Positions 1,908 through 15,044 of a stretch of DNA of 64,000 nt are shown piece after piece (position 1 is the stretch's first letter; every line of letters begins with the position of its first letter). The translations under genes were made by a program, and so were the position numbers. A model generated the notes under the pieces. The model searched no databases. It worked only from the letters and a program-made list of their open reading frames with translations, and was not told the DNA's origin. Source of the DNA: Candidatus Cloacimonas sp. (GTDB lineage Bacteria; Cloacimonadota; Cloacimonadia; Cloacimonadales; Cloacimonadaceae); NCBI GenBank assembly GCA_039680785.1, contig JBDKSF010000068.1, positions 31,922-95,921 of the forward strand. Direction: 5' to 3'.

Positions 1908-3776
1908 ATGATTTTGGAAAATATTACCGATCCTAAACAAATAAAAGGATTAACGGTCAGCGAATTAAAAATCCTGGCTAAGGAAGTTCGCACTCGCATT
2001 GTAGAAGTCGTTTCCCAGACAGGGGGTCATTTAGCTCCCAGTTTAGGAACCGTGGATCTCACCGTTACCCTGCTTTATCTTTTTGATCCACTTGTAGATA
2101 GAATCGTTTGGGATGTAGGGCATCAGTCCTACGCTTGGAAAATTTTAACGGGACGCAACGCTCGCTTTGACACTTTAAGACAATATCAAGGCATCAGCGG
2201 TTTCACCAATCGCGAAGAAAGTCCTTATGATGCTTTTACTACAGGCCATAGCAGCACTTCCATTTCCGCCGCTTTGGGCATTGCTTGTGGCAGGGATTTA
2301 AATGGCGAAAAGGGTCATTGTCTTGCCATTATTGGTGATGGGGCTTTAACGGGTGGAATAAGTTTTGAAGCATTAAATTATGGGGGCCATCTCCAAAAAG
2401 ATAAATTCATCGTAATTCTTAATGACAACGAAATGTCCATCTCCAAAAATGTGGGCGGATTGCAAAAATATATGGCAAGAATGCTTGCCAGCAAGTCCTA
2501 TAATGTTCTTAAAAAACAGGTCTGGGATTTCAGCTCCACTTTACCTTCCAAATTTCGGCGCGGTTTCATCTACGGCGCCCAAAAAATGGAAGAATCGATG
2601 ATGAATATTTTGGTGCCCAACATCATTTTTGAAGATCTTGGCTTTAAATATGTAGGGCCCATTGACGGGAATGACATAGACCAGCTTTTGCGCATCATTA
2701 AAAGAGTTAAGAACTATATGGTCGGTCCCGTTTTAATTCATATTGTCACTCAAAAAGGAAAGGGCTATCTTCCCGCGGAAAAAGATTCCGAACTTTTTCA
2801 TGGAACAGGACCTTTTGACCTCAAAACCGGTAAGCAATTTAGCAGTGGAAAACAATCTTGGAGCGAATTTATGGGCTCAACTTTGGTCAATTTAGCTAAG
2901 CAGAATCCCAAAATTGTAGCTATAACCGCGGCTATGACTGCCGGTACAGGCCTAACGGATTTTGAAAAGAATTTTCCCGATCGCTTTTTTGATGTGGGCA
3001 TTGCCGAACAGCATTCCGTCACTTTGGCGGCAGGGATGTCCACGAAAGGTTTAAAGCCCTTCATAGCAATCTATTCCACTTTTCTGCAAAGAGCTCTGGA
3101 CCAAGTTATTCACGATGTAGCTCTTCCCAAATTGCCAGTGGTTTTTTGTATTGACAGAGCCGGACTTGTAGGCGAAGACGGAGCCACGCATCAGGGTGCT
3201 TTTGACATATCTTATTTAAATTTCATTCCCAATTTAGTCATTTTAACTCCTTCCACGGCTGAAGAACTTTCCGCGATGCTTGCTTGGGCTGCGGATTATC
3301 AAGCAAATCCTGTGGCTATCAGATATCCGAGAGGAGGGGTAGTTCATTCTAAGGAACATCAAGAACCAATGAAATTTGATCCTTTTTCCGCTAAAATTCA
3401 TTCTGATGAAGGTAACATTGCCTTGGTTGCTTGTGGAGATGCTTTTTTTATCGCTGAAGAAGTTCATAACTTATTGGCACAGAATAATATCCAATCCCAA
3501 TTAGTGCAATTATTGGCTGTTAAACCCTTGGATGCCCAAACGCTTGAAAATTTGGCAGCTAATTGCAACTATATCTTCACTTTAGAAAGCAATGCCATCA
3601 TCGGAGGAATGGGCTCCAGAATAAGCCAACTGCTTTCTCTTTATTCGGTTAAGGTAATCAATTTTGGCTATCCTGACTACTTCATTGCGCACGGCAAAAT
3701 TTCTGAATTATTGGATGAGATCGGTTTTACTCCACAAAAGCTGTATGACAAAATAACGCAGATCATCAATGAATAA
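1908..3776 (+). CDS. dxs: 1-deoxy-D-xylulose-5-phosphate synthase
   Basis: GGHLAPSLG, WDVGHQSY, GDGALTGG...ILNDN TPP-binding motif, DVGIAEQH, DGATHQG; 622 aa. Confidence 0.97.
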   Translation: MILENITDPKQIKGLTVSELKILAKEVRTRIVEVVSQTGGHLAPSLGTVDLTVTLLYLFDPLVDRIVWDVGHQSYAWKILTGRNARFDTLRQYQGISGFTNREESPYDAFTTGHSSTSISAALGIACGRDLNGEKGHCLAIIGDGALTGGISFEALNYGGHLQKDKFIVILNDNEMSISKNVGGLQKYMARMLASKSYNVLKKQVWDFSSTLPSKFRRGFIYGAQKMEESMMNILVPNIIFEDLGFKYVGPIDGNDIDQLLRIIKRVKNYMVGPVLIHIVTQKGKGYLPAEKDSELFHGTGPFDLKTGKQFSSGKQSWSEFMGSTLVNLAKQNPKIVAITAAMTAGTGLTDFEKNFPDRFFDVGIAEQHSVTLAAGMSTKGLKPFIAIYSTFLQRALDQVIHDVALPKLPVVFCIDRAGLVGEDGATHQGAFDISYLNFIPNLVILTPSTAEELSAMLAWAADYQANPVAIRYPRGGVVHSKEHQEPMKFDPFSAKIHSDEGNIALVACGDAFFIAEEVHNLLAQNNIQSQLVQLLAVKPLDAQTLENLAANCNYIFTLESNAIIGGMGSRISQLLSLYSVKVINFGYPDYFIAHGKISELLDEIGFTPQKLYDKITQIINE

Positions 3777-5142
3777 TGTGTTCGAAATTATTTGTGCGCC
3801 TGCCACTCCCGCCGGATTTTCCGCTCTGGCAATAATTCGTCTTAGTGGTTTAGGTTGCATTGAACTTGTAGCCAAGCACTTTTCCAAGAGCAAAGAACTG
3901 CTATCTTTATCTTCTCATCGGCTGATTCTGGGCACTTTTCATTCTGCCGCGGGAGAAGCTATAGATGAAGTTCTGCTTTCTGTTTTTAGAGAACCTCATA
4001 GTTATACGGGAGAAGATGTTGTGGAAATATCTTGTCACGGAAATCCCAACCTTGTGAATAGCATTTTGCAGACCCTGATGCTTTCCTGCCGTTTGGCAAA
4101 ACCGGGGGAATTTACTTTGCGCGCTTTTTTAAACGGAAAAATGGATTTGAGCCAAGCCGAGGCAGTTAACGATCTTATTCAAGCCCAAACATCCAAAGCT
4201 GAAAAGGCCTCCTTCAGGCAACTTAAGGGCTCACTTAGCCAATATTTGCAGGAATTGCTGAATCGGATAACGGAACTTCGTATCCATTTTGAACTTGCCA
4301 TTGATTTTGCCGACCAGGATTTGCCACTTCCCGATTTTGATTTGATGCATCAAGAACTGATTGATATTATCCAAAAGGCAGAGGAACTTATCAGCACAGG
4401 TGAGCAGGGAAAAAAACTCCGCACCGGCATAAAGATCTGTTTAACCGGTGCACCCAATGTAGGTAAGTCATCACTTTTTAATGCTTTGCTGCAACAGAAC
4501 CGGGCAATCGTTACTCCCCATCCGGGAACCACCCGAGATTATCTGGAAGAGTATCTATCCATAAATGGCTTTCCCATAGTTATTTATGATACTGCAGGCC
4601 TGCGCGAATCGCCGGATGACATCGAAAAAATGGGTATTGCCAAAAGTTACGAATTAATGCAGGAATCCGACCTCCTTTTATATTTAGTGGAAACAACCGC
4701 CGCAGTAAAACTTGCACAACCCATTTCCACTTTACTCTCCAATTCCTCCCTTGCGCCTGAACTTTTTGCCAAAACCCTGGTCGTATTTAGTAAAGCAGAC
4801 CTCCAAAAAGAAAATTTGCCCCCAATCGCCGGCGGTGTCTATTGTAGCGTAGTTACGGAAAATGGTTTGAAAGACCTCACTGAAACAATTTCCCAGCGCT
4901 TGCTGCTTAGCGACGACTTGCCAGATAAACCCATCCTTATCAATAACAGACATCTGATTGCCTTAGCTAACTGCTTGCAATCCTTGCATCAAGCCGAACA
5001 ATGCCTGGTGGAAAACCAAGGTTTTGAATTCATTGCCTTTGAATTGATTTCCGCCAGCAATGCATTAGAAGAAATTTTGGGCATCATTACCACCGACGAC
5101 CTCCTAAACAAAATATTCAGTGAATTCTGCATTGGAAAATAA
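3769..5142 (+). CDS. mnmE: tRNA modification GTPase MnmE (TrmE)
   Basis: SYTGEDVVEISCHG, GEFTLRAFLNGKMDLSQAEAV, GAPNVGKSSL, PGTTRD, DTAGLR, C-terminal FSEFCIGK. Confidence 0.97.
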   Translation: MNNVFEIICAPATPAGFSALAIIRLSGLGCIELVAKHFSKSKELLSLSSHRLILGTFHSAAGEAIDEVLLSVFREPHSYTGEDVVEISCHGNPNLVNSILQTLMLSCRLAKPGEFTLRAFLNGKMDLSQAEAVNDLIQAQTSKAEKASFRQLKGSLSQYLQELLNRITELRIHFELAIDFADQDLPLPDFDLMHQELIDIIQKAEELISTGEQGKKLRTGIKICLTGAPNVGKSSLFNALLQQNRAIVTPHPGTTRDYLEEYLSINGFPIVIYDTAGLRESPDDIEKMGIAKSYELMQESDLLLYLVETTAAVKLAQPISTLLSNSSLAPELFAKTLVVFSKADLQKENLPPIAGGVYCSVVTENGLKDLTETISQRLLLSDDLPDKPILINNRHLIALANCLQSLHQAEQCLVENQGFEFIAFELISASNALEEILGIITTDDLLNKIFSEFCIGK

Positions 5143-5224
5143 GCCACGGCAAAATAGCAATTATCTTCATTGCCTCAGAATGTAACTTCTCCTTAGTTAC
5201 GGCAAGTGACTAAATTAACTAACT

Positions 5225-5383
5225 CGCTGCCACAGCATACCTTGATTGCTGTTTCCATACCTTTTTTAAACGGATTGCATACGCCCAATACGCTGCCACT
5301 GCATACTCTGCTTACTGTTTCCATACCTTTTTTAAACGGATTGCATACGCTAAAAACGCTGCCACTTCATACTCTGCTTACTG
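5225..5383. repeat. 66-bp tandem repeat, about 2.4 copies
   Basis: CGCTGCCAC starts at 5225, 5291 and 5357; shared core CTGTTTCCATACCTTTTTTAAACGGATTGCATACGC. Confidence 0.85.
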
Positions 5384-5820
5384 CCCCTTTATCGTTTTGC
5401 CATCCATTTTTTTATTTATCGCTTACCGATTTATCTAATGCCCCTCGCTTTGATGCCGTTTGCCTGTCAGACCCTTTCTACTACAATTTCCGTGTATCCA
5501 CAGCAAGAATTATTTCTTCTTCTGCTACAATTTCCCCATATTCACAGCAAGAACTAATTACAACCTACCCAAAAATGCTCTTCTACTGCCCAGGCATCTT
5601 CCCTTTATGCTGCATTGACATAGCAGTAACATTTCCGTAACGAAACAACGGCAGTGTTACGGCAGCGTTACTTGATCGTAAGAGAGTGCACTGTGTAACA
5701 AATAATTAACTGATTCTATCTTATCACAGCAAAACCATTGAATAATTAGGAACAATGGCATTCTCTCTATGATTTTTGGCTGATGGGGAGAAATAATTAA
5801 AATCCTGAACAAATTATCCT

Positions 5821-5935
5821 ATCAGAATTGAATACAAGAGACCTCTACTTGCTATTTCTCCAATCTCGGCTAACAAATATCTGCAGATGATTGGAAAGGA
5901 TAGCAAAGAAGGATATTTTTTACCTTTACCACCCA
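5821..5935. repeat. 115-bp hairpin element, copy 1 (homologous to 13967-14081)
   Basis: ATCAGAATT...CTCCAAT...TTTTTACCTTTACCACCCA at identical spacing in both copies; imperfect inverted arms TTGCTAT-TCCAATC / GATTGGA-ATAGCAA. Confidence 0.65.
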
Positions 5936-5954
5936 GATGAGAAAAATTTTGTAC

Positions 5955-5984
5955 TTGACAGAACTGAAGCACTAAAAATATAAG
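5955..5984 (+). promoter_or_regulatory. putative sigma70 promoter of the TIR cassette
   Basis: TTGACA (5955-5960), 18-nt spacer, TATAAG (5979-5984), about 120 nt upstream of the first cassette gene. Confidence 0.45.
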
Positions 5985-6102
5985 AAAAACAACTATGCGA
6001 GGATAATGATTTATTATGAAAGATGAATCTCATTTATCACACACACTAAGCCTGATAGAGCAATCGGTAAAATTCCATTCATAGTCTGAACTGTTGAGGA
6101 AG

Positions 6103-7038
6103 ATGATGGATTTGCAACAAAACATCTGTCCAATATGCCATAGAGAGTTAAGTGAAAACCTAAGAACAAGCGATTATGGAAACATAGTTCATGTTGTATG
6201 TGCATACTGCGGTAACTTCAAGATAACAAATCATGTATTACTTGATATGTTGAGTGAGAGACAGCAGAAAAATGAGCCAGACATGGACATGAGTATTGCC
6301 TTAAGACATCTATCATCTATGGCAGCAGATGAGATTGATTTAAAGTATGAAAACTACGAAAAGATTAAGGGTAGTATTCAAATTCCTTCCGATCCATTGG
6401 AAGTTCTCGATCTTCTTATGCTTTATTGTGGGAAAAAAGCTACCAGGTTCAATGTAGGTATAACAGTTCCAAAAATCGATATTCCATTATTGTATGTGCA
6501 CGATGACAACGATATGCAAGCATTACTTGAAATGGCTCAGGAATTGGAGTACATTGATCAGTATCATTCAGAACAGAATAATTATGTGTTTACACTAAAA
6601 GTCAAGGGATGGGATAGAATAATCCAGCTTCGTAAAGTTAGACCAGAATCTAAACAAGTGTTTGTGGCAATGTCGTTTAACAATAAATTAGACGAAATCT
6701 ATCATCAAGGAATTGCGAAAGCAGTTGAACAATGCGGATTGATCCCTATCAGAATAGACCTTGTTGATTTTAATGACGAGATAATATCAAATGTATTAAG
6801 TAGGATAAACCAAAGCAGATTTTTAATAGCGGATTATACAGATAATAGACCAGGTGTCTATTTTGAAACTGGTTATGCTATCGGTAGAGGTTTGCCAGTA
6901 ATTTATTGCTGTCGGGAAAGCGATAAAGGGTATATTCATTTCGATATTAATCATTACAAATTCATTCATTGGATTGATGTAAGTGACTTTAAGACCGAAC
7001 TTGTAAAGAGGATAACTAATACTGGTCTAAATACTTAA
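6103..7038 (+). CDS. Zn-ribbon plus C-terminal nucleoside 2-deoxyribosyltransferase-like/TIR-like domain protein
   Basis: N-terminal CPIC...CAYC; C-terminal 'QVFVAMSF...IRID...SRFLIADYTDNRPGVYFETGYAIGRGLPVIYCC...HFDINH'. ATG at 6103 after GAGGA (ORF track starts at TTG 6094). Confidence 0.7.
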   Translation: MMDLQQNICPICHRELSENLRTSDYGNIVHVVCAYCGNFKITNHVLLDMLSERQQKNEPDMDMSIALRHLSSMAADEIDLKYENYEKIKGSIQIPSDPLEVLDLLMLYCGKKATRFNVGITVPKIDIPLLYVHDDNDMQALLEMAQELEYIDQYHSEQNNYVFTLKVKGWDRIIQLRKVRPESKQVFVAMSFNNKLDEIYHQGIAKAVEQCGLIPIRIDLVDFNDEIISNVLSRINQSRFLIADYTDNRPGVYFETGYAIGRGLPVIYCCRESDKGYIHFDINHYKFIHWIDVSDFKTELVKRITNTGLNT

Positions 7039-7071
7039 CTTAATATGTTATAAACCCTTTGAGGAGAATTG

Positions 7072-7509
7072 ATGACTAAACAAGAGTTAGAAATCTATGA
7101 ATCTCCTGCAGTTATTAAACACATAGAGATTTTGCAGGATATCATCAATAGAATGGCTGGAAACAGCGCAGCTTGTAAAACATGGGCATTAACAATCGTT
7201 ACAGGTATAATAGCTTTGTTTTACAATGATGGATTTCCCATATTGCTTGGCATCATAATTGTAGTTCTTTTCTTCGCCTTAGACTCGTTTTATGTGGGTC
7301 TTGAAAGCCATTTTAGATGTCTTCATAAAGAATTCGTGAAAAAAATGAATGAAAACAAGCTTGTAATAGAAGATATCTACAGCATCAAGACCAAGCGTAA
7401 TTTTCTTATTCACTTACAGTTCATTTTGTATGGAATGAGATCATTTTCCACTTTATTCTTTTATCCACCTATTTTGGTTATAATCGTTGTTCTGTTTTTG
7501 TGTAATTAA
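7072..7509 (+). CDS. small membrane protein (about 3 TM), putative defence effector
   Basis: 'HIEILQDIINRMAGNSAACKTW' followed by hydrophobic segments WALTIVTGIIALFY, PILLGIIIVVLFFALDSFYVGL and FFYPPILVIIVVLFL; GAGGAG RBS before ATG 7072. Confidence 0.7.
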   Translation: MTKQELEIYESPAVIKHIEILQDIINRMAGNSAACKTWALTIVTGIIALFYNDGFPILLGIIIVVLFFALDSFYVGLESHFRCLHKEFVKKMNENKLVIEDIYSIKTKRNFLIHLQFILYGMRSFSTLFFYPPILVIIVVLFLCN

Positions 7510-7533
7510 CATAAAATAAATAAGGAGGTTCAA

Positions 7534-8019
7534 ATGCCAAAGAGACAAGTTTTCTACAGCTTTCATTTCAAGAACGATGTTATGAGGGTTCAACAAATAA
7601 GAAACATTGGGGCAATTGAAGATAATAAGCCGGTATCAGAAAATGAATGGGAGGAGATTAGGAGAAAAGGGAAAGATTCTATTAAGAAATGGATCAATGT
7701 CAATATGAGTTATCGATCTTGTGTCATTGTATTGGTTGGCGAAGAAACAGCTGACCGTGAGTGGGTTCAATATGAAATAAAGAAAGCTTGGGAAGATGGT
7801 AAGGGATTACTTGGAATTTACATTCATAACATTCGGTGTCCGAGAAACGGTAAATGTAATAAAGGTGATAATCCTTTCGAACAATTTACTTTACAAGATG
7901 GTACTAAGCTATCAACTAAGGTAAAATGCTATAACCCAAAATCTGATGATGCTTACAACGATATAGCTAAAAATCTTGAGAAATGGGTTGAAGAAGCAAT
8001 TGAGAGTAGGAAGGAGTAG
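7534..8019 (+). CDS. ThsB-like TIR domain protein (DUF1863/MTH538 family)
   Basis: 'RQVFYSFHF..DVMRVQQIRN...WEE...IKKWI...M...SCVIVLVGEETADREWVQYEIKKAW..GKGLLGIYIH'; catalytic-type Glu in WVQYEI; AGGAGG RBS. Confidence 0.88.
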   Translation: MPKRQVFYSFHFKNDVMRVQQIRNIGAIEDNKPVSENEWEEIRRKGKDSIKKWINVNMSYRSCVIVLVGEETADREWVQYEIKKAWEDGKGLLGIYIHNIRCPRNGKCNKGDNPFEQFTLQDGTKLSTKVKCYNPKSDDAYNDIAKNLEKWVEEAIESRKE

Positions 8020-8021
8020 AT

Positions 8022-8825
8022 ATGTATAGGGGATTTAATGTTAAGAATATCGAGATAGAAGATGAAAAATACTATAATAAAGGATATGAGAAAATGGTTG
8101 AAAACAAGAATGCAATTTCTGATAAGTTACACAATTTCATTCCTAATAATGGTAAGATCGATGGAACAAATATTCAGAACTCTTGGTTCCCAACAATCGA
8201 CGCAGATGTTTTTATTTCTCATGCCCATAGTGATGAAAACATTGCTCTTACATTGGCTGGATGGTTATGGTGTCGTTTCCGCCTAACATCATTCGTGGAC
8301 TCTTGTGTTTGGGGATATTCAAATGACTTACAGAAGATAATTGATGAGCAATTTTGTAAAAAGGGTTACAATTCGAACAGTTATGAAAGCAGAAACTTTT
8401 CTACTAGCCATGTGCATATGATGCTTGCTAGTGCTTTAACGATAATGATTGATAGCGCAGAATGTTTATTTTTTTTAAATACGCCAAGTTCACTGTCAGT
8501 AAGTGACATTGAAGATAAGACTTGCTCTCCTTGGATATATCATGAATTAACTATCAGCAAGTACATAAGAAAACGATTTCCAACAAGACATAAACGCAAG
8601 AGTTTATTAGCCTATAGGTCAATACCAAAAGAAGCTCGATTAAAAATGGAATACTATATTGATTTGTCAAATTTGGTTACAATATCAGAAAGTGATTTGG
8701 TTGTTTGGGGAAACCACTGTAAGAGTACTAAATTAAATGCTCTTGATGATTTGTATAAAAGACATCCTATTAATCCTATTAAAAAGAGAAGTGCTCCTAA
8801 AGTGTGTAGATATCCATGTAGTTAA
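8022..8825 (+). CDS. second TIR domain protein
   Basis: 'DVFISHAHSDE...LAGWL...FVDSCVWG...MIDSAECLFFLNTP...SPWIYHEL'; starts 2 nt after the previous stop. Confidence 0.78.
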   Translation: MYRGFNVKNIEIEDEKYYNKGYEKMVENKNAISDKLHNFIPNNGKIDGTNIQNSWFPTIDADVFISHAHSDENIALTLAGWLWCRFRLTSFVDSCVWGYSNDLQKIIDEQFCKKGYNSNSYESRNFSTSHVHMMLASALTIMIDSAECLFFLNTPSSLSVSDIEDKTCSPWIYHELTISKYIRKRFPTRHKRKSLLAYRSIPKEARLKMEYYIDLSNLVTISESDLVVWGNHCKSTKLNALDDLYKRHPINPIKKRSAPKVCRYPCS

Positions 8826-8933
8826 AAACAGAGATTATATTAACTTTGAAGTCCGGTATTTCCAATGAAACAGTGGAAACAGAGTATGGATTTCTAAGAC
8901 ACCAATTTGGTTCATTTCTGATAAGGAGAATAG

Positions 8934-9914
8934 ATGAAAAAAGTTATACCAATAGTAAGTCCCGCTGTTAATTATCTAACTTATGTTCAAGCAATTTGTG
9001 GCATAAACTGGGAAATTGAAGATAAAGAGCGTAAGAACGAAATGCTCTCGGAAGAAGATCAAGTTTATATGCAATCTTGTGCCGATAACTTGAGATTTGG
9101 AGATGGCTCGGTATCCTCATTAACAGAGATATTTTACTTCCTTCCAGCTTATATATTCAAAGAAAATAGTGCCGGCATTATGGAATATTTTTCCTGTTTA
9201 GAACACTGTTATGATGTAGGTAGTCCATCACCTTTAATTGAGGAATATGGTGACCATATTAAACGAATGCAAGAATTTAATGCTTCCTTTTTACTGACTA
9301 TTAAATCATTAAATCAGGAAGAAGTACTCTTTAAAATCAAGCATCTAAGCACTATATATAAAACATATTACCTGAAATATTTGCACTTGATCTGGAGCCA
9401 CGATAAAGTAATTATAAATAGAACATTTGATTACATAAATGAGACATTCTCCGTGAATGACATAGTTAGTAAATGGGAAGTAGCTACAGGTTTTGATCTG
9501 CTTGCCGAGCAATATCAGCTGATTATAGTTCCCTCTCTTCAGTTTGGACCATGCGCAAATTCATTGCATTATGGTGTAAATATCTTCCCGGCTATTACAG
9601 AATACTGCCCTAAGGAATACTTTGATCATTTTATCTCGCATGAGATTGGAACCCACATCCTAAAACCTCACACTTTAGATAAAGCTGACATAGCAGATGA
9701 TAATTTTCGCATCCCCTATATTGCTTTTGAGAATCTGGCAAAACACATCAACCTAAAGATCCTATCAAATAGATATCAATATGAGTTAGGTGAAGAATAT
9801 TACGAGGATGCGATTTTTGAAAGTATCTATAATAATCTGGATACATTGGCTAATGATGATATTGGTGCTATGTACTTTACTGCCATAGACCAGTATAAGA
9901 AATTGAAATCATAG
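8934..9914 (+). CDS. hypothetical protein with HExxH motif (possible gluzincin-type metallopeptidase)
   Basis: 'FISHEIGTHILK' and downstream 'AFENLA'; AGGAG RBS; no signal peptide. Confidence 0.5.
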   Translation: MKKVIPIVSPAVNYLTYVQAICGINWEIEDKERKNEMLSEEDQVYMQSCADNLRFGDGSVSSLTEIFYFLPAYIFKENSAGIMEYFSCLEHCYDVGSPSPLIEEYGDHIKRMQEFNASFLLTIKSLNQEEVLFKIKHLSTIYKTYYLKYLHLIWSHDKVIINRTFDYINETFSVNDIVSKWEVATGFDLLAEQYQLIIVPSLQFGPCANSLHYGVNIFPAITEYCPKEYFDHFISHEIGTHILKPHTLDKADIADDNFRIPYIAFENLAKHINLKILSNRYQYELGEEYYEDAIFESIYNNLDTLANDDIGAMYFTAIDQYKKLKS

Positions 9915-10098
9915 AATGATTCCGATATGTAGGAATGTCACCTGTTGTCTGCTATATGTTTTTATAATCTGACATTATGACGATCTATTATTGCAATATT
10001 CGGTGATACTTCCTTTCCCTTTTCAGTAATATATTTTCAATTTTCGCTGATACTTTATCCTAAACTCATCCTTGGGATTGTTGCCTTGCAGAAAAAGC

Positions 10099-10127
10099 TT
10101 GACATCCACAGGGCTTTAGAGTATTAT
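10099..10127 (+). promoter_or_regulatory. near-consensus sigma70 promoter
   Basis: TTGACA (10099-10104), 17-nt spacer, TATTAT (10122-10127). Confidence 0.65.
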
Positions 10128-10279
10128 ATTATAAATGATTTATCTTGTTTGGATACATTGGGGATAAATGCTTCCGTGCCTTTGCCAAAAAGAATTCGGT
10201 AAGCAGGTGGATTCCCAAAGAAAATAAGTTGTAACCAGAAAAATTTGATATTAGTAAGTATCAAAAAAGCGAGAAAGCA

Positions 10280-12765
<2,486 letters not shown>

Positions 12766-13854
12766 GTGGATAGATTCAATGCTTGGATCTGCCTGAAATC
12801 TGCTCCGCTTTTAGGACCAAAAGGTGTTCTGGAAATTTTACAGCGCTATCCTGATCCACAAGAGTTTGTGGGAAACCCCGCTCATAACATCTACCGTGAG
12901 GATAAGCTTAAGCCAGAAACTATCAAACATTTAAGTAATTTTGTCCTGCCGGAAAACAGCCCTAAAATAGTGGACTTGCTGGCTAAATATCAGATCCAAT
13001 ATCTTTGCCTAACCGATCCTGACTATCCTGCCTGTTTAAAGGAGATTTGTGATCCGCCCTTGATTTTGTATTACAGAGGAGACCTTTTAGAAACCCTCAA
13101 AGACCTTTGTCTGGCAGTTGTGGGAACCAGAAAACCTACTTCCTACGGAGTGGAAATGACTCGGAAAATTCTCTCTCCGCTCTGTGAAAAAGGGGTAAAT
13201 ATTATCAGCGGTTTGGCAATGGGAATTGATACAATTGCCCATCAGACAGCTCTGAAAGCAAAGACAAAAACGATTGCCGTTTTTGCTTCCGGTTTGGAAA
13301 CTATCTATCCGCCAATGAATAAAGCCCTTGCCGAGCACATTATGGATAATGGGGCATTAGTTAGCGAATATGAACCCGGCAGCAAATTGGAACGCTGGAA
13401 TTTTCCTGCGCGCAATAGAATTATCAGTGCCCTTTCCCAAGCAATTTTGGTTGTGGAAGGTTCTCTCAATAGCGGCGCTATGCTTACTGCCAAATTTGCT
13501 CAGCAACAAAATAAACCGCTGTTCGCCTTGCCGGGAAACATTAATAACCGCAATGCACAAGGTCCCAATTTACTAATCCGACAGGGAGCTACTTTAGTAA
13601 GTTCCGCAGATGATTTAATCACTGATTTTGGGCTAAGCTCCTCTGTGAAAGAACAGCTGGAATTGATTCCGGAGCTTTCTGCTGAAGAACAATCAATATT
13701 TGACCTTCTTTCGGAAGCACAACGAGACATCACTTTTGATGAACTTTTGCTAAAAACCGGGTTGGGCTTTGGAAAACTTTCCACCTTGCTATTGAATTTG
13801 GAGCTGAAAGGAGTGATAGCCAAAAGTAGCGGAAATAGCTATATCAAATTGTGA
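12766..13854 (+). CDS. dprA: DNA processing protein DprA (Smf)
   Basis: LAVVGTRKPTSYG, IISGLAMGIDT, FPARNRIISALS, SGAMLTA; GTG start directly after the obgE stop. Confidence 0.95.
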   Translation: MDRFNAWICLKSAPLLGPKGVLEILQRYPDPQEFVGNPAHNIYREDKLKPETIKHLSNFVLPENSPKIVDLLAKYQIQYLCLTDPDYPACLKEICDPPLILYYRGDLLETLKDLCLAVVGTRKPTSYGVEMTRKILSPLCEKGVNIISGLAMGIDTIAHQTALKAKTKTIAVFASGLETIYPPMNKALAEHIMDNGALVSEYEPGSKLERWNFPARNRIISALSQAILVVEGSLNSGAMLTAKFAQQQNKPLFALPGNINNRNAQGPNLLIRQGATLVSSADDLITDFGLSSSVKEQLELIPELSAEEQSIFDLLSEAQRDITFDELLLKTGLGFGKLSTLLLNLELKGVIAKSSGNSYIKL

Positions 13855-13966
13855 GATAATTTCTTGTAACATAGAAAGCAAGGGAAAGGAAAGGAAAGGA
13901 AGCAAGAGGTTATTTTTATATTCACTGGTAACCTAAAAACCCAGAAACCCTGTCCCAATCTTCTCA

Positions 13967-14081
13967 TCAGAATTAAATAACAATAAGACCCTTCCTGTTA
14001 TCCCTCCAATTTTAACTGATAAATATATGTAGCTGATGGGAATGGATAATAAGGAGGGATACTTTTTACCTTTACCACCCA
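13967..14081. repeat. 115-bp hairpin element, copy 2
   Basis: aligns to 5821-5935 with the same anchor spacing and the same end TTTTTACCTTTACCACCCA; lies between convergent genes. Confidence 0.65.
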
Positions 14082-14090
14082 AGAAATGGC

Positions 14091-15044
14091 TTACGGTAAT
14101 TTAGTCACCTTGCGAACCAGTTTCCCGTTTCCATAGTTAATGGAGACAAAATACAATCCCGCCGTTTGATTGACAAAGACCTCGCTGAAGTCAAGCTGTG
14201 TTATCGCTCCGGCTTTCAGGATGTGCTCACTTTGGGTTATCAATCTCCCTTTTAGGTCGTAGATACTTATGCAAACAGGGCTGGAATTCTTTGCTTCCAG
14301 AATCAGGGAGAGATCACTGGCAAAGGGATTGGGGCTAAGGACCGCTTTCAGAGAATGGGTTTGAACTACATTATCTTCATTGGCAACATTGGGATCTGCT
14401 TGGTTCAGAACATAGAGCATACCATTATTCACAGTTAGGGTGTAGGCAATTATTCCATATTCTTTGGTTTCCCATTGATAGTAGTAATAGCTGATCACAT
14501 TCGTTTGATAATAGTAGCGAACCAGCAAAGCAGGATAACTTCCCAGTGGTGTGCTAACTTGACCTTCGGCTATCACTTTGCCACTGACTACATAGGTTCC
14601 ATAAGCCCAATTATGCGTCCCCGACCAGGTTTTGCCCAAATAATGTGGTAAGCCCATAGGAACAGGTGGATTCCAAACAAAATCCGGAGAAGCCGTGTAA
14701 CCAATGCTGAGAATGTCACTACCGGTATTTTGGTAGTATTGAGTTCCACTGCTGTAATAATCCAGTATGTTTTGCTCAAAAACGGCAGACATATTGGCAT
14801 TGGGGAAGCCGTTTACATTCTGCACACTGTGGAAGATGTTATTGACATATCCGGCAGAAGGCATATTAAAATTCCAAAGCTTGTTTGTGCCTTCCGAGAG
14901 GTCTGTTCCAGAAGAATTCCAAGGTCCTTCACTGTAGTTTCTGATCTTTCCTTCTGTGTAGCCATAATCGCTAACTTCGATCGTAAGGCAAAAACCCCGT
15001 AGCCAGTATAGCGAGATCGCCAATATCAATAGTATCCTGCGCAT
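14091..15044 (-). CDS. secreted protein with T9SS type A-like C-terminal domain
   Basis: signal peptide; tail 'SPNPF...ISIYDLKGRLI...AGLYFVSI....RKVTKL'. Confidence 0.72.
   Translation of the reverse strand: MRRILLILAISLYWLRGFCLTIEVSDYGYTEGKIRNYSEGPWNSSGTDLSEGTNKLWNFNMPSAGYVNNIFHSVQNVNGFPNANMSAVFEQNILDYYSSGTQYYQNTGSDILSIGYTASPDFVWNPPVPMGLPHYLGKTWSGTHNWAYGTYVVSGKVIAEGQVSTPLGSYPALLVRYYYQTNVISYYYYQWETKEYGIIAYTLTVNNGMLYVLNQADPNVANEDNVVQTHSLKAVLSPNPFASDLSLILEAKNSSPVCISIYDLKGRLITQSEHILKAGAITQLDFSEVFVNQTAGLYFVSINYGNGKLVRKVTKLP

Follow-up and report, generated by a model that had tools for sequence, protein, structure and literature searches.

We found that the segment from 7069 to 8825 of a Candidatus Cloacimonas sp. 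contig (JBDKSF010000068.1) is, as judged from homology and gene neighborhoods, a type V Thoeris system, composed of the membrane effector ThsF and two ThsB proteins. It is a new example of a described kind of defense system. The stretch of DNA that we analyzed, hereafter the window, is 64,000 nucleotides (nt) long. Five co-oriented open reading frames (ORFs) in it are called g1 to g5; the type V segment consists of g2 (ThsF), g3, and g4 (both ThsB), and g1 stands at the head of the cassette. Throughout, L numbers denote comparison loci and G numbers denote comparison genomes. Gene structure, homologies, neighborhoods, and the identity with a published class were observed directly. Taken as a whole, the cassette is probably best explained as a type V Thoeris system (g2 to g4) that works by the described mechanism, preceded by a separable defense-island enzyme (g1).

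Thoeris was recently widened to types I to XI, with 29 predicted effector classes (Yirmiya et al., bioRxiv 10.64898/2025.12.03.692087, December 2025). In that preprint, type V is the pair of ThsB and ThsF, and ThsF is a protein with three transmembrane (TM) helices that is annotated as DUF2270. The type V system of Bacillus thuringiensis DAR 81934 protects Bacillus subtilis, and its ThsB yields 3' cyclic ADP-ribose (3'cADPR) on infection. This molecule is toxic to cells with a type V system, the type V effector by itself gives 3'cADPR-dependent toxicity, and the Tad1 sponge counteracts the system. ThsF models as a ring with basic (positively charged) pockets between protomers. Type V is enriched in Bacteroidota (all from bioRxiv 10.64898/2025.12.03.692087).

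To place the window in this scheme, we scanned reference genomes, one per species, with an alignment of g4 and its ThsB relatives. The scan gave 80 loci, in which g2-family genes were sought with hidden Markov models (HMMs) built from the window families. A g2-family gene was present in 62 of the 80 loci, mostly directly adjacent to the g4 relative and usually 2 to 50 nt apart from it. The remaining 18 loci had no g2-family gene; some have a neighboring ORF that resembles a SIR2-type ThsA or a caspase-like protein, a judgment made by reading the sequence and not by a library scan. Table S1 of the preprint contains four of the TIR proteins verbatim, within cluster 2734579397 and under the label "DUF2270 - Type V." They belong to Porphyromonas somerae DSM 23386, Exiguobacterium antarcticum DSM 14480, Clostridium carboxidivorans P7, and Neobacillus niacini F8, and their loci are L035, L065, L071, and L075. 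At all four, the sole adjacent co-oriented partner of the TIR is a g2-family protein, and the g2-family HMM matches the adjacent gene with E values from 7e-51 to 2e-21. Therefore, we identify g2 as ThsF. Because g3 and g4 are of the ThsB type, 7069 to 8825 is then a type V Thoeris system with two ThsB genes. Relatives of the window's own cassette were absent from the Table S1 rows listed.

The g2 protein matches all four PADLOC PDC-M50A models, with a best E value of 2.3e-25. Its hydropathy profile suggests two helices at about residues 38 to 54 and 57 to 75, which merge in the scan into a double hydrophobic stretch (46 to 80), and a third at 123 to 146. The alignment of the family has three conserved hydrophobic blocks, in line with the three TM helices of the type V effector. 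These helices were read from hydropathy and the alignment. A profile search with g2 reached 4,715 representative clusters at E ≤ 1e-3. In a survey of gene neighbors, which had been proposed along with the original prediction made from the sequence of this region, g2 homologues adjoined ThsB genes in nearly all distinct contexts examined, often near restriction-modification genes.

The Pfam model of DUF2270, PF10028, supplies the points that weigh against calling g2 a ThsF. PF10028 did not match g2 at E ≤ 1 or the genome at E ≤ 10. A search of the 232 phylum genomes at E ≤ 0.001, including ten that have a g2-family gene, was also negative. Among ten g2-family members, it matched one, and faintly (E = 0.068). 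With no match in g2, in the genome, in the phylum, or in the other nine members, the Pfam sequence model was dropped as a way to recognize g2 as DUF2270. The proposed identity of g2 with DUF2270/ThsF rests on the preprint table and gene neighborhoods rather than on comparing g2 itself with the effector tested from B. thuringiensis. No Pfam domain was found in any of 32 close g2 homologues. Because the DUF2270 model is blind to a large ThsF family, Pfam-based annotation will miss type V Thoeris.

The TIR proteins g3 and g4 come from different clusters. The g3 protein matches the Pfam family ThsB_TIR (1.9e-26) and the PADLOC models ThsB1 (3.1e-75) and PDC-M50B (3.4e-64). With a TIR of cluster 2661146773, which is also entered in Table S1 as "DUF2270 - Type V," it shares 39% identity, and with the counterpart gene in L001, L006, and L011, 74 to 85%. 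The g4 protein matches the PADLOC ThsB1 model PDLC00430 at 2.4e-75. In full-length alignments, g4 shares 40% identity with the type V ThsB tested from B. thuringiensis DAR 81934 and 42% with the type IX ThsB of Bacillus cereus VD021. These two Bacillus ThsBs belong to TIR cluster 2734579397, and both make 3'cADPR, only on infection (bioRxiv 10.64898/2025.12.03.692087). The motifs quoted in the original prediction were found with their glutamates: YFETGYA with Glu258 in g1, WVQYEI with Glu81 in g3, and WIYHEL with Glu175 in g4. The glutamate is conserved in both g3 and g4, and that of SPWI(Y/F)HE is invariant in the g4 alignment.

The original prediction had placed three enzymes of TIR or nucleoside deoxyribosyltransferase (NDT) fold in one system. 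This holds for g3 and g4, which are ThsB proteins, but is weakly supported for g1, whose predicted structure points to an NDT/DNPH1-like N-glycosidase fold rather than the ThsB fold and whose homologues mostly have no Thoeris gene nearby. The Pfam NDT family PF05014 is carried by several g1 homologues and matches g1 at 4.9e-5, with 23.9 bits against a gathering cut-off of 28.8. An AlphaFold 2 model of g1 had a predicted local distance difference test (pLDDT) score of 93.9. In Foldseek, its C-terminal domain matched NDTs, DNPH1/Rcl, the TIR domains of SPARTA and AbTir, and the cytidine monophosphate (CMP) N-glycosidase BcmB. A profile search aligned Glu258 with the glutamate of the rat Rcl GYELG motif, the catalytic nucleophile of Rcl.

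The g1 family gave 111 matches from many phyla. Residues C12, C15, C36, C39, E258, and F283-D284 are invariant; the glutamate lies in GVYFE(A/T)G, and the family also has an HFD motif. Modeled alone, the N-terminal 180 residues (pLDDT 95.5) weakly matched winged-helix DNA-binding proteins, and the g1 profile weakly matched Elf1-type zinc ribbons and a PadR-like regulator. No TPR-S, SLOG, Macro, or other known signal-binding domain was seen in g1 by Pfam or among the structure matches. The C terminus weakly matched the PADLOC CBASS "TIR effector" model. The family is otherwise absent from PADLOC, and we found no description of it in the literature.

We suggest that g1 is most likely a separate, self-contained defense-island enzyme. 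Among the 232 phylum genomes, the g1 family occurs in 41, g2 in 10, and ThsB_TIR in 28, so that g1 is about four times more widespread than ThsF. A g2 or TIR gene was near g1 in 2 of the 54 metagenomic loci with enough downstream sequence. Across these 54 loci, g1 had no other recurrent partner, save occasional upstream restriction-modification genes. PADLOC, run on 149 neighbors of stand-alone g1 genes, reported type I restriction-modification components in a few loci, and in qualitative terms g1 appears to be enriched in defense islands. The stand-alone copies in L095, L096, and L131 are intact and 50 to 56% identical to the g1 of the window. In a quick maximum-likelihood tree, the window copy clusters with stand-alone copies (support 98), outside a six-member Thoeris-linked clade. 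In addition, g1 is absent from 60 of 62 ThsF-plus-ThsB loci, and its N-terminal part is more like DNA-binding winged helices than like the known sensors of nucleotide signals. The Zn-ribbon and winged-helix-like part of g1 would serve as a sensor, and once triggered, the NDT-like domain would degrade NAD+ or a nucleotide. The gene would then travel with the Thoeris cassette in one lineage, without being a required component.

Several observations weigh against complete separation. In at least six genomic contexts (the window, L001, L006, L126, L128, and L135), the effector gene is immediately preceded, at 9 to 33 nt, by a co-oriented g1. The order g1-g2-g3(-g4) with short gaps is found in the window and in L001 to L003, L006 and L007, L126/L014, L127, L128, and L135, and g1 identity drops to 35 to 50% across the contexts that conserve it. 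The Thoeris-linkage label needs at least three changes on the g1 tree. In G008 and G047, a g1-like gene stands first in a ThsB operon of another kind, and NDT-domain genes adjoin ThsB in G118, G135, and G194. In G194 and G135, these genes encode ThsI-like NDT-plus-TPR-S proteins, and their catalytic domain and the one in g1 are homologous. An hhalign comparison of the g1 family with the ThsI-like protein of L211 gave a probability of 95.8% and an E value of 6.8e-9. The proteins of L211 and L213 carry TPR-S (PF20308) at 3.5e-20 and 4.3e-27, and g1 has no such match. Finally, ThsB is present in 13 of the 41 g1-bearing genomes versus 15 of the 191 without g1. Because of the upstream position, the other ThsB operons, the NDT neighbors of ThsB, and the co-occurrence in genomes, some functional tie between g1 and Thoeris is indicated.

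In a rival reading, g1 would be integral to the system, either as a second effector activated by the ThsB signal, like ThsI of type VIII, or as an enzyme that sets the threshold by trimming or destroying the signal, and the cassette would be a two-effector Thoeris. Homology of the catalytic domain to the ThsI-like proteins beside ThsB, a gene order kept despite the divergence of g1, linkage at no fewer than three places in the tree, and the g1-like leaders of another ThsB operon all favor this possibility, and rare two-effector operons with ThsH plus ThsI are known (bioRxiv 10.64898/2025.12.03.692087). However, 52 of the 54 metagenomic g1 loci have no TIR or ThsF nearby, no ThsB_TIR match was obtained in 28 of the 41 genomes that carry g1, the signal-binding domains named above are absent from g1, and minimal ThsF-plus-ThsB operons without g1 are the rule. 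We therefore regard an integral g1 as unlikely, and a real role of g1 in Thoeris signaling as having a minority chance. It is equally doubtful that g1 is a new functional class tied to TIR signaling, be it a second effector with an unrecognized sensing surface or a glycosidase that cleaves a cADPR-type signal and so sets a threshold or an off-switch. If it is, the repeated recruitment of g1-type and NDT genes to the heads of ThsB operons would reflect function and not mere crowding in defense islands.

The loci in which g1-like or NDT genes meet Thoeris genes differ in makeup. The operon headed by a g1 paralogue spans 4456 to 7972 of L130 (G008) and 3051 to 5257 of L215 (G047). The paralogue, of 334 to 335 amino acids (aa), precedes genes for a 231-aa protein and a 168-aa ThsB, all on one strand. 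This ThsB matches PADLOC ThsB1 at 1.9e-70; the 231-aa protein matched no family and could be a Thoeris effector that is SLATT-like or not yet described. The G008 operon continues with a 164-aa ORF and a PDC-S30 protein. L212 (G118) has a compound TIR island at 2739 to 6636. Its genes encode a small ThsB, a caspase-like protein of the Peptidase_C14 family (type IV-like), a TIR protein of 273 aa, and a protein of 296 aa that begins with a g1-like NDT domain; the locus also holds a divergent 193-aa ORF with solely the g1-type Zn-ribbon N terminus. At 4516 to 6067 of L214 (G100; the same locus as L004), the gene directly upstream of ThsF encodes 316 aa, with a g1-like NDT domain at the C terminus and another N terminus; the g2 HMM matches this ThsF at 1.6e-70. 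Downstream there is no intact ThsB, just ORFs of 106 and 90 aa, and the locus is a Thoeris in decay or else a pairing of another kind.

Two kinds of gene recur upstream of g1. In one cassette clade, a conserved protein of about 215 aa is encoded just before g1, overlapping it or at most 20 nt away (L001, 4385 to 5047; L006, 4410 to 5048; L127, 5854 to 6522; L133, 2095 to 2757). This protein may be a partner of g1. It was rejected as a component here, because tblastn finds it absent from the window; it has no Pfam or PADLOC match. A large same-strand restriction-type gene is directly upstream of g1 in L099/L126, L105/L128, L174, and L183. The gene of L126 matches a type IIG restriction-methyltransferase model. 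Thoeris lies downstream in two of these four loci, and the other two have none.

The original prediction went further and took all four genes as one undescribed Thoeris-like system with a noncanonical effector. Its premise that no ThsA-type effector domain is present was borne out: Pfam, PADLOC, and NCBIfam found no SIR2-SLOG, TM-Macro, or caspase-like effector domain (types I, II, and IV) in g1 to g5. Its outline, Thoeris-type TIR signaling with the small membrane protein as the effector, was also right. NCBIfam has no name for any of g1 to g4, and Pfam recognizes g3, gives g1 the sub-threshold NDT match, and finds no other. The novelty of the core, however, is refuted. PADLOC identified g2 as M50A, g3 as ThsB1/M50B, and g4 as ThsB1, so that three of the four genes match a described system; the module of g2 and ThsB was in PADLOC as PDC-M50 in 2023, and the g2 family is the ThsF of type V (Yirmiya et al., 2025). 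Elsewhere this module does without g1. A single undescribed four-gene system is thus very improbable.

The signal molecule and the activation of the effector, like all function of g1, we infer. On the model of tested relatives, the g3 or g4 ThsB would detect phage infection and turn NAD+ into a cyclic ADP-ribose isomer, and the signal from a g4-type TIR would most likely be 3'cADPR. This signal would bind the ring-shaped ThsF oligomer of g2, and the activated ThsF would damage the membrane and halt growth before the phage cycle ends. Having two different ThsB proteins probably broadens the range of phages sensed. Two published results weigh against a firm choice of signal: one type V variant is unresponsive to 3'cADPR, and TIRs of the g3 cluster, in type XI systems, gave no known molecule (bioRxiv 10.64898/2025.12.03.692087). 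Because of these results, the signal molecule of this cassette is uncertain. That the TIRs are instead NAD+-depleting effectors, with g2 serving as a sensor or an anchor or else being an unrelated membrane protein, is scarcely credible: although the preprint warns that a TIR may be the effector in unverified configurations (bioRxiv 10.64898/2025.12.03.692087) and the role of this subfamily is a prediction from sequence, the g4 cluster includes the two ThsBs that produce 3'cADPR only on infection, a type V effector alone confers 3'cADPR-dependent toxicity, and g3 and g4 are both short, of the ThsB type, and free of partner domains.

The layout of the cassette was confirmed as originally described, with four co-oriented ORFs and gaps of 33 nt (to the ATG at 7072), 24 nt, and 2 nt (Table 1). 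Counted from the TTG, g1 has 314 aa; its homologues begin at the ATG at 6106. The cassette is flanked by dxs and mnmE on one side and by a type IX secretion system (T9SS)-tail protein, obgE, and dprA on the other, and its G+C content is 0.33 to 0.35 versus about 0.41 in the flanks. The promoter of the original prediction has the TTGACA (5955 to 5960), followed after 18 nt by TATAAG, but promoter-like matches in the region scan are at chance level (23 versus 24.5 in shuffled sequence), and for this reason it stays a candidate. The region scan found no terminator-like site. A metatranscriptome of the same study has 100%-identical contigs over g1, g3, g4, and g5. These contigs are compatible with expression; DNA carry-over is possible, and they say nothing on an operon. 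In the best DNA run (X1), Logan contigs break within g3, with pieces that end at 7899 and start at 7926, and at the 66-nt repeats too (5278 to 5344). The break inside g3 may reflect strain variation in the source sample. PHROGs families exist for g1, g2, and g4, and the phage records searched gave one weak partial g1 match and nothing else.

Table 1. Coordinates of the cassette genes, g5, and repeats in the window
Feature	Position	Strand	Description
g1	6094/6103-7038	+	Zn-ribbon + winged-helix-like + NDT/DNPH1/TIR-fold protein; invariant Glu258
g2	7069/7072-7509	+	146 aa; ThsF-family effector; three TM helices; conserved N-terminal cytoplasmic helix
g3	7534-8019	+	161 aa; ThsB-type TIR; putative catalytic Glu81 in WVQYEI
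g4	8022-8825	+	267 aa; second ThsB-type TIR; invariant Glu175 in SPWIYHEL
g5	8934-9914	+	326 aa; HEIGTH motif; outside the system
Tandem duplication	5225-5356		2 x 66 nt, 88% identity
Tandem duplication	5476-5559		2 x 40 nt, 44-nt spacing, 83% identity
Dispersed intergenic repeat copy, about 135 nt	5800-5937	+	Ends just before the TTGACA at 5955

Downstream of the cassette, g5 has no match in Pfam, PADLOC, NCBIfam, or PHROGs. Its 25 homologues are 54 to 100% identical to it, and the two that are named are both from Cloacimonetes. Of the 61 genomes in the family, 10 have g5, often at contig ends, which suggests a variable region. It is missing downstream of the cassette in L001, L006, L126, and L127. 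We rejected g5 as a fifth component because it never accompanies the cassette elsewhere, is lineage restricted, and has no family match. The four closest genomes checked retain the T9SS-tail protein, obgE, and dprA, but neither dxs nor mnmE was seen in the 10 kb or so upstream, and comparison with these four gave no clear edge of an insertion. Since close relatives keep the former genes but differ upstream, the cassette sits in a variable spot.

The spacer between mnmE and g1 is 950 bp of noncoding DNA that holds tandem repeats. A 144-aa ORF over these repeats (5206 to 5640) is probably not a gene. The dispersed repeat copy before the cassette is 75% identical to 13945 to 14081, in the same orientation, and ends in GGATAYTTTTTACCTTTACCACCCA. 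This repeat has at least 11 matches in the genome, including the window copy, with 73 to 100% identity. Rfam reported nothing in 5000 to 14400 and no match for the repeat, which could be an element like a miniature inverted-repeat transposable element, a repeat that carries a promoter, or a family of small RNAs.

The core is a further case of type V Thoeris from a poorly studied, Cloacimonadota-like wastewater lineage, with two different ThsB sensors; apart from data on distribution, it contributes little. What remains of interest is the uncharacterized g1 family, which is repeatedly placed ahead of ThsB operons. The family is abundant, well folded, unnamed, and patchy, has an invariant putative catalytic glutamate, and is often beside restriction-modification genes. 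If g1 defends alone, it would be a new single-gene system. Should it act on the TIR signal, Thoeris would have in it either a new type of effector or a first built-in regulator.

Compared with the tested type V system, the cassette has the same arrangement of a ThsB gene directly beside a three-TM effector of about 145 aa, and g4 is in the family of the tested ThsB (40%). Many of the 80 loci with g4 relatives are from Bacteroidota, where the preprint reports enrichment. In contrast to the tested system, the cassette has two ThsB genes from different clusters, puts the effector gene first, and is headed by an NDT-like gene. Its host is of the Cloacimonadota type, and its putative effector is missed by PF10028. 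The PADLOC candidate PDC-M50 (PADLOC-DB v2.0.0, 2023) calls for co-located M50A and M50B, which are here g2 and g3, 24 nt apart. Because both match the PDC-M50 models, g2 and g3 were already listed as a candidate system in 2023. PDC-M50 is an untested two-gene computational candidate, and it does not cover g4 or g1.

For g1, the nearest Thoeris protein is ThsI of type VIII, a CMP hydrolase domain with TPR-S. The C-terminal domain of g1 is homologous to the N-terminal NDT domain of ThsI-like proteins, including the glutamate and the HFD/PFD motifs. However, g1 has a Zn ribbon and a winged-helix-like part instead of TPR-S, its catalytic domain is at the opposite end, its neighboring TIRs are from other clusters, and most g1 genes are not beside a TIR. 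In its fold and in the position of the nucleophile glutamate, g1 is like DNPH1/Rcl, NDTs, and the CMP N-glycosidases BcmB and MilB, but it is 12 to 17% identical to them, its Pfam score is below the cut-off, and its N-terminal Zn-ribbon/winged-helix module is absent from those enzymes. Swarozyc is a DUF4062 TIR-like NADase with an auxiliary sensor domain (bioRxiv 10.64898/2026.05.01.722283). Unlike Swarozyc, g1 has no DUF4062 match, and its trigger and NADase activity are hypothetical. For a stand-alone g1, Swarozyc nonetheless provides a working analogy, in which a catalytic TIR/NDT-like domain is joined to a sensing domain and the gene is distributed patchily in defense islands.

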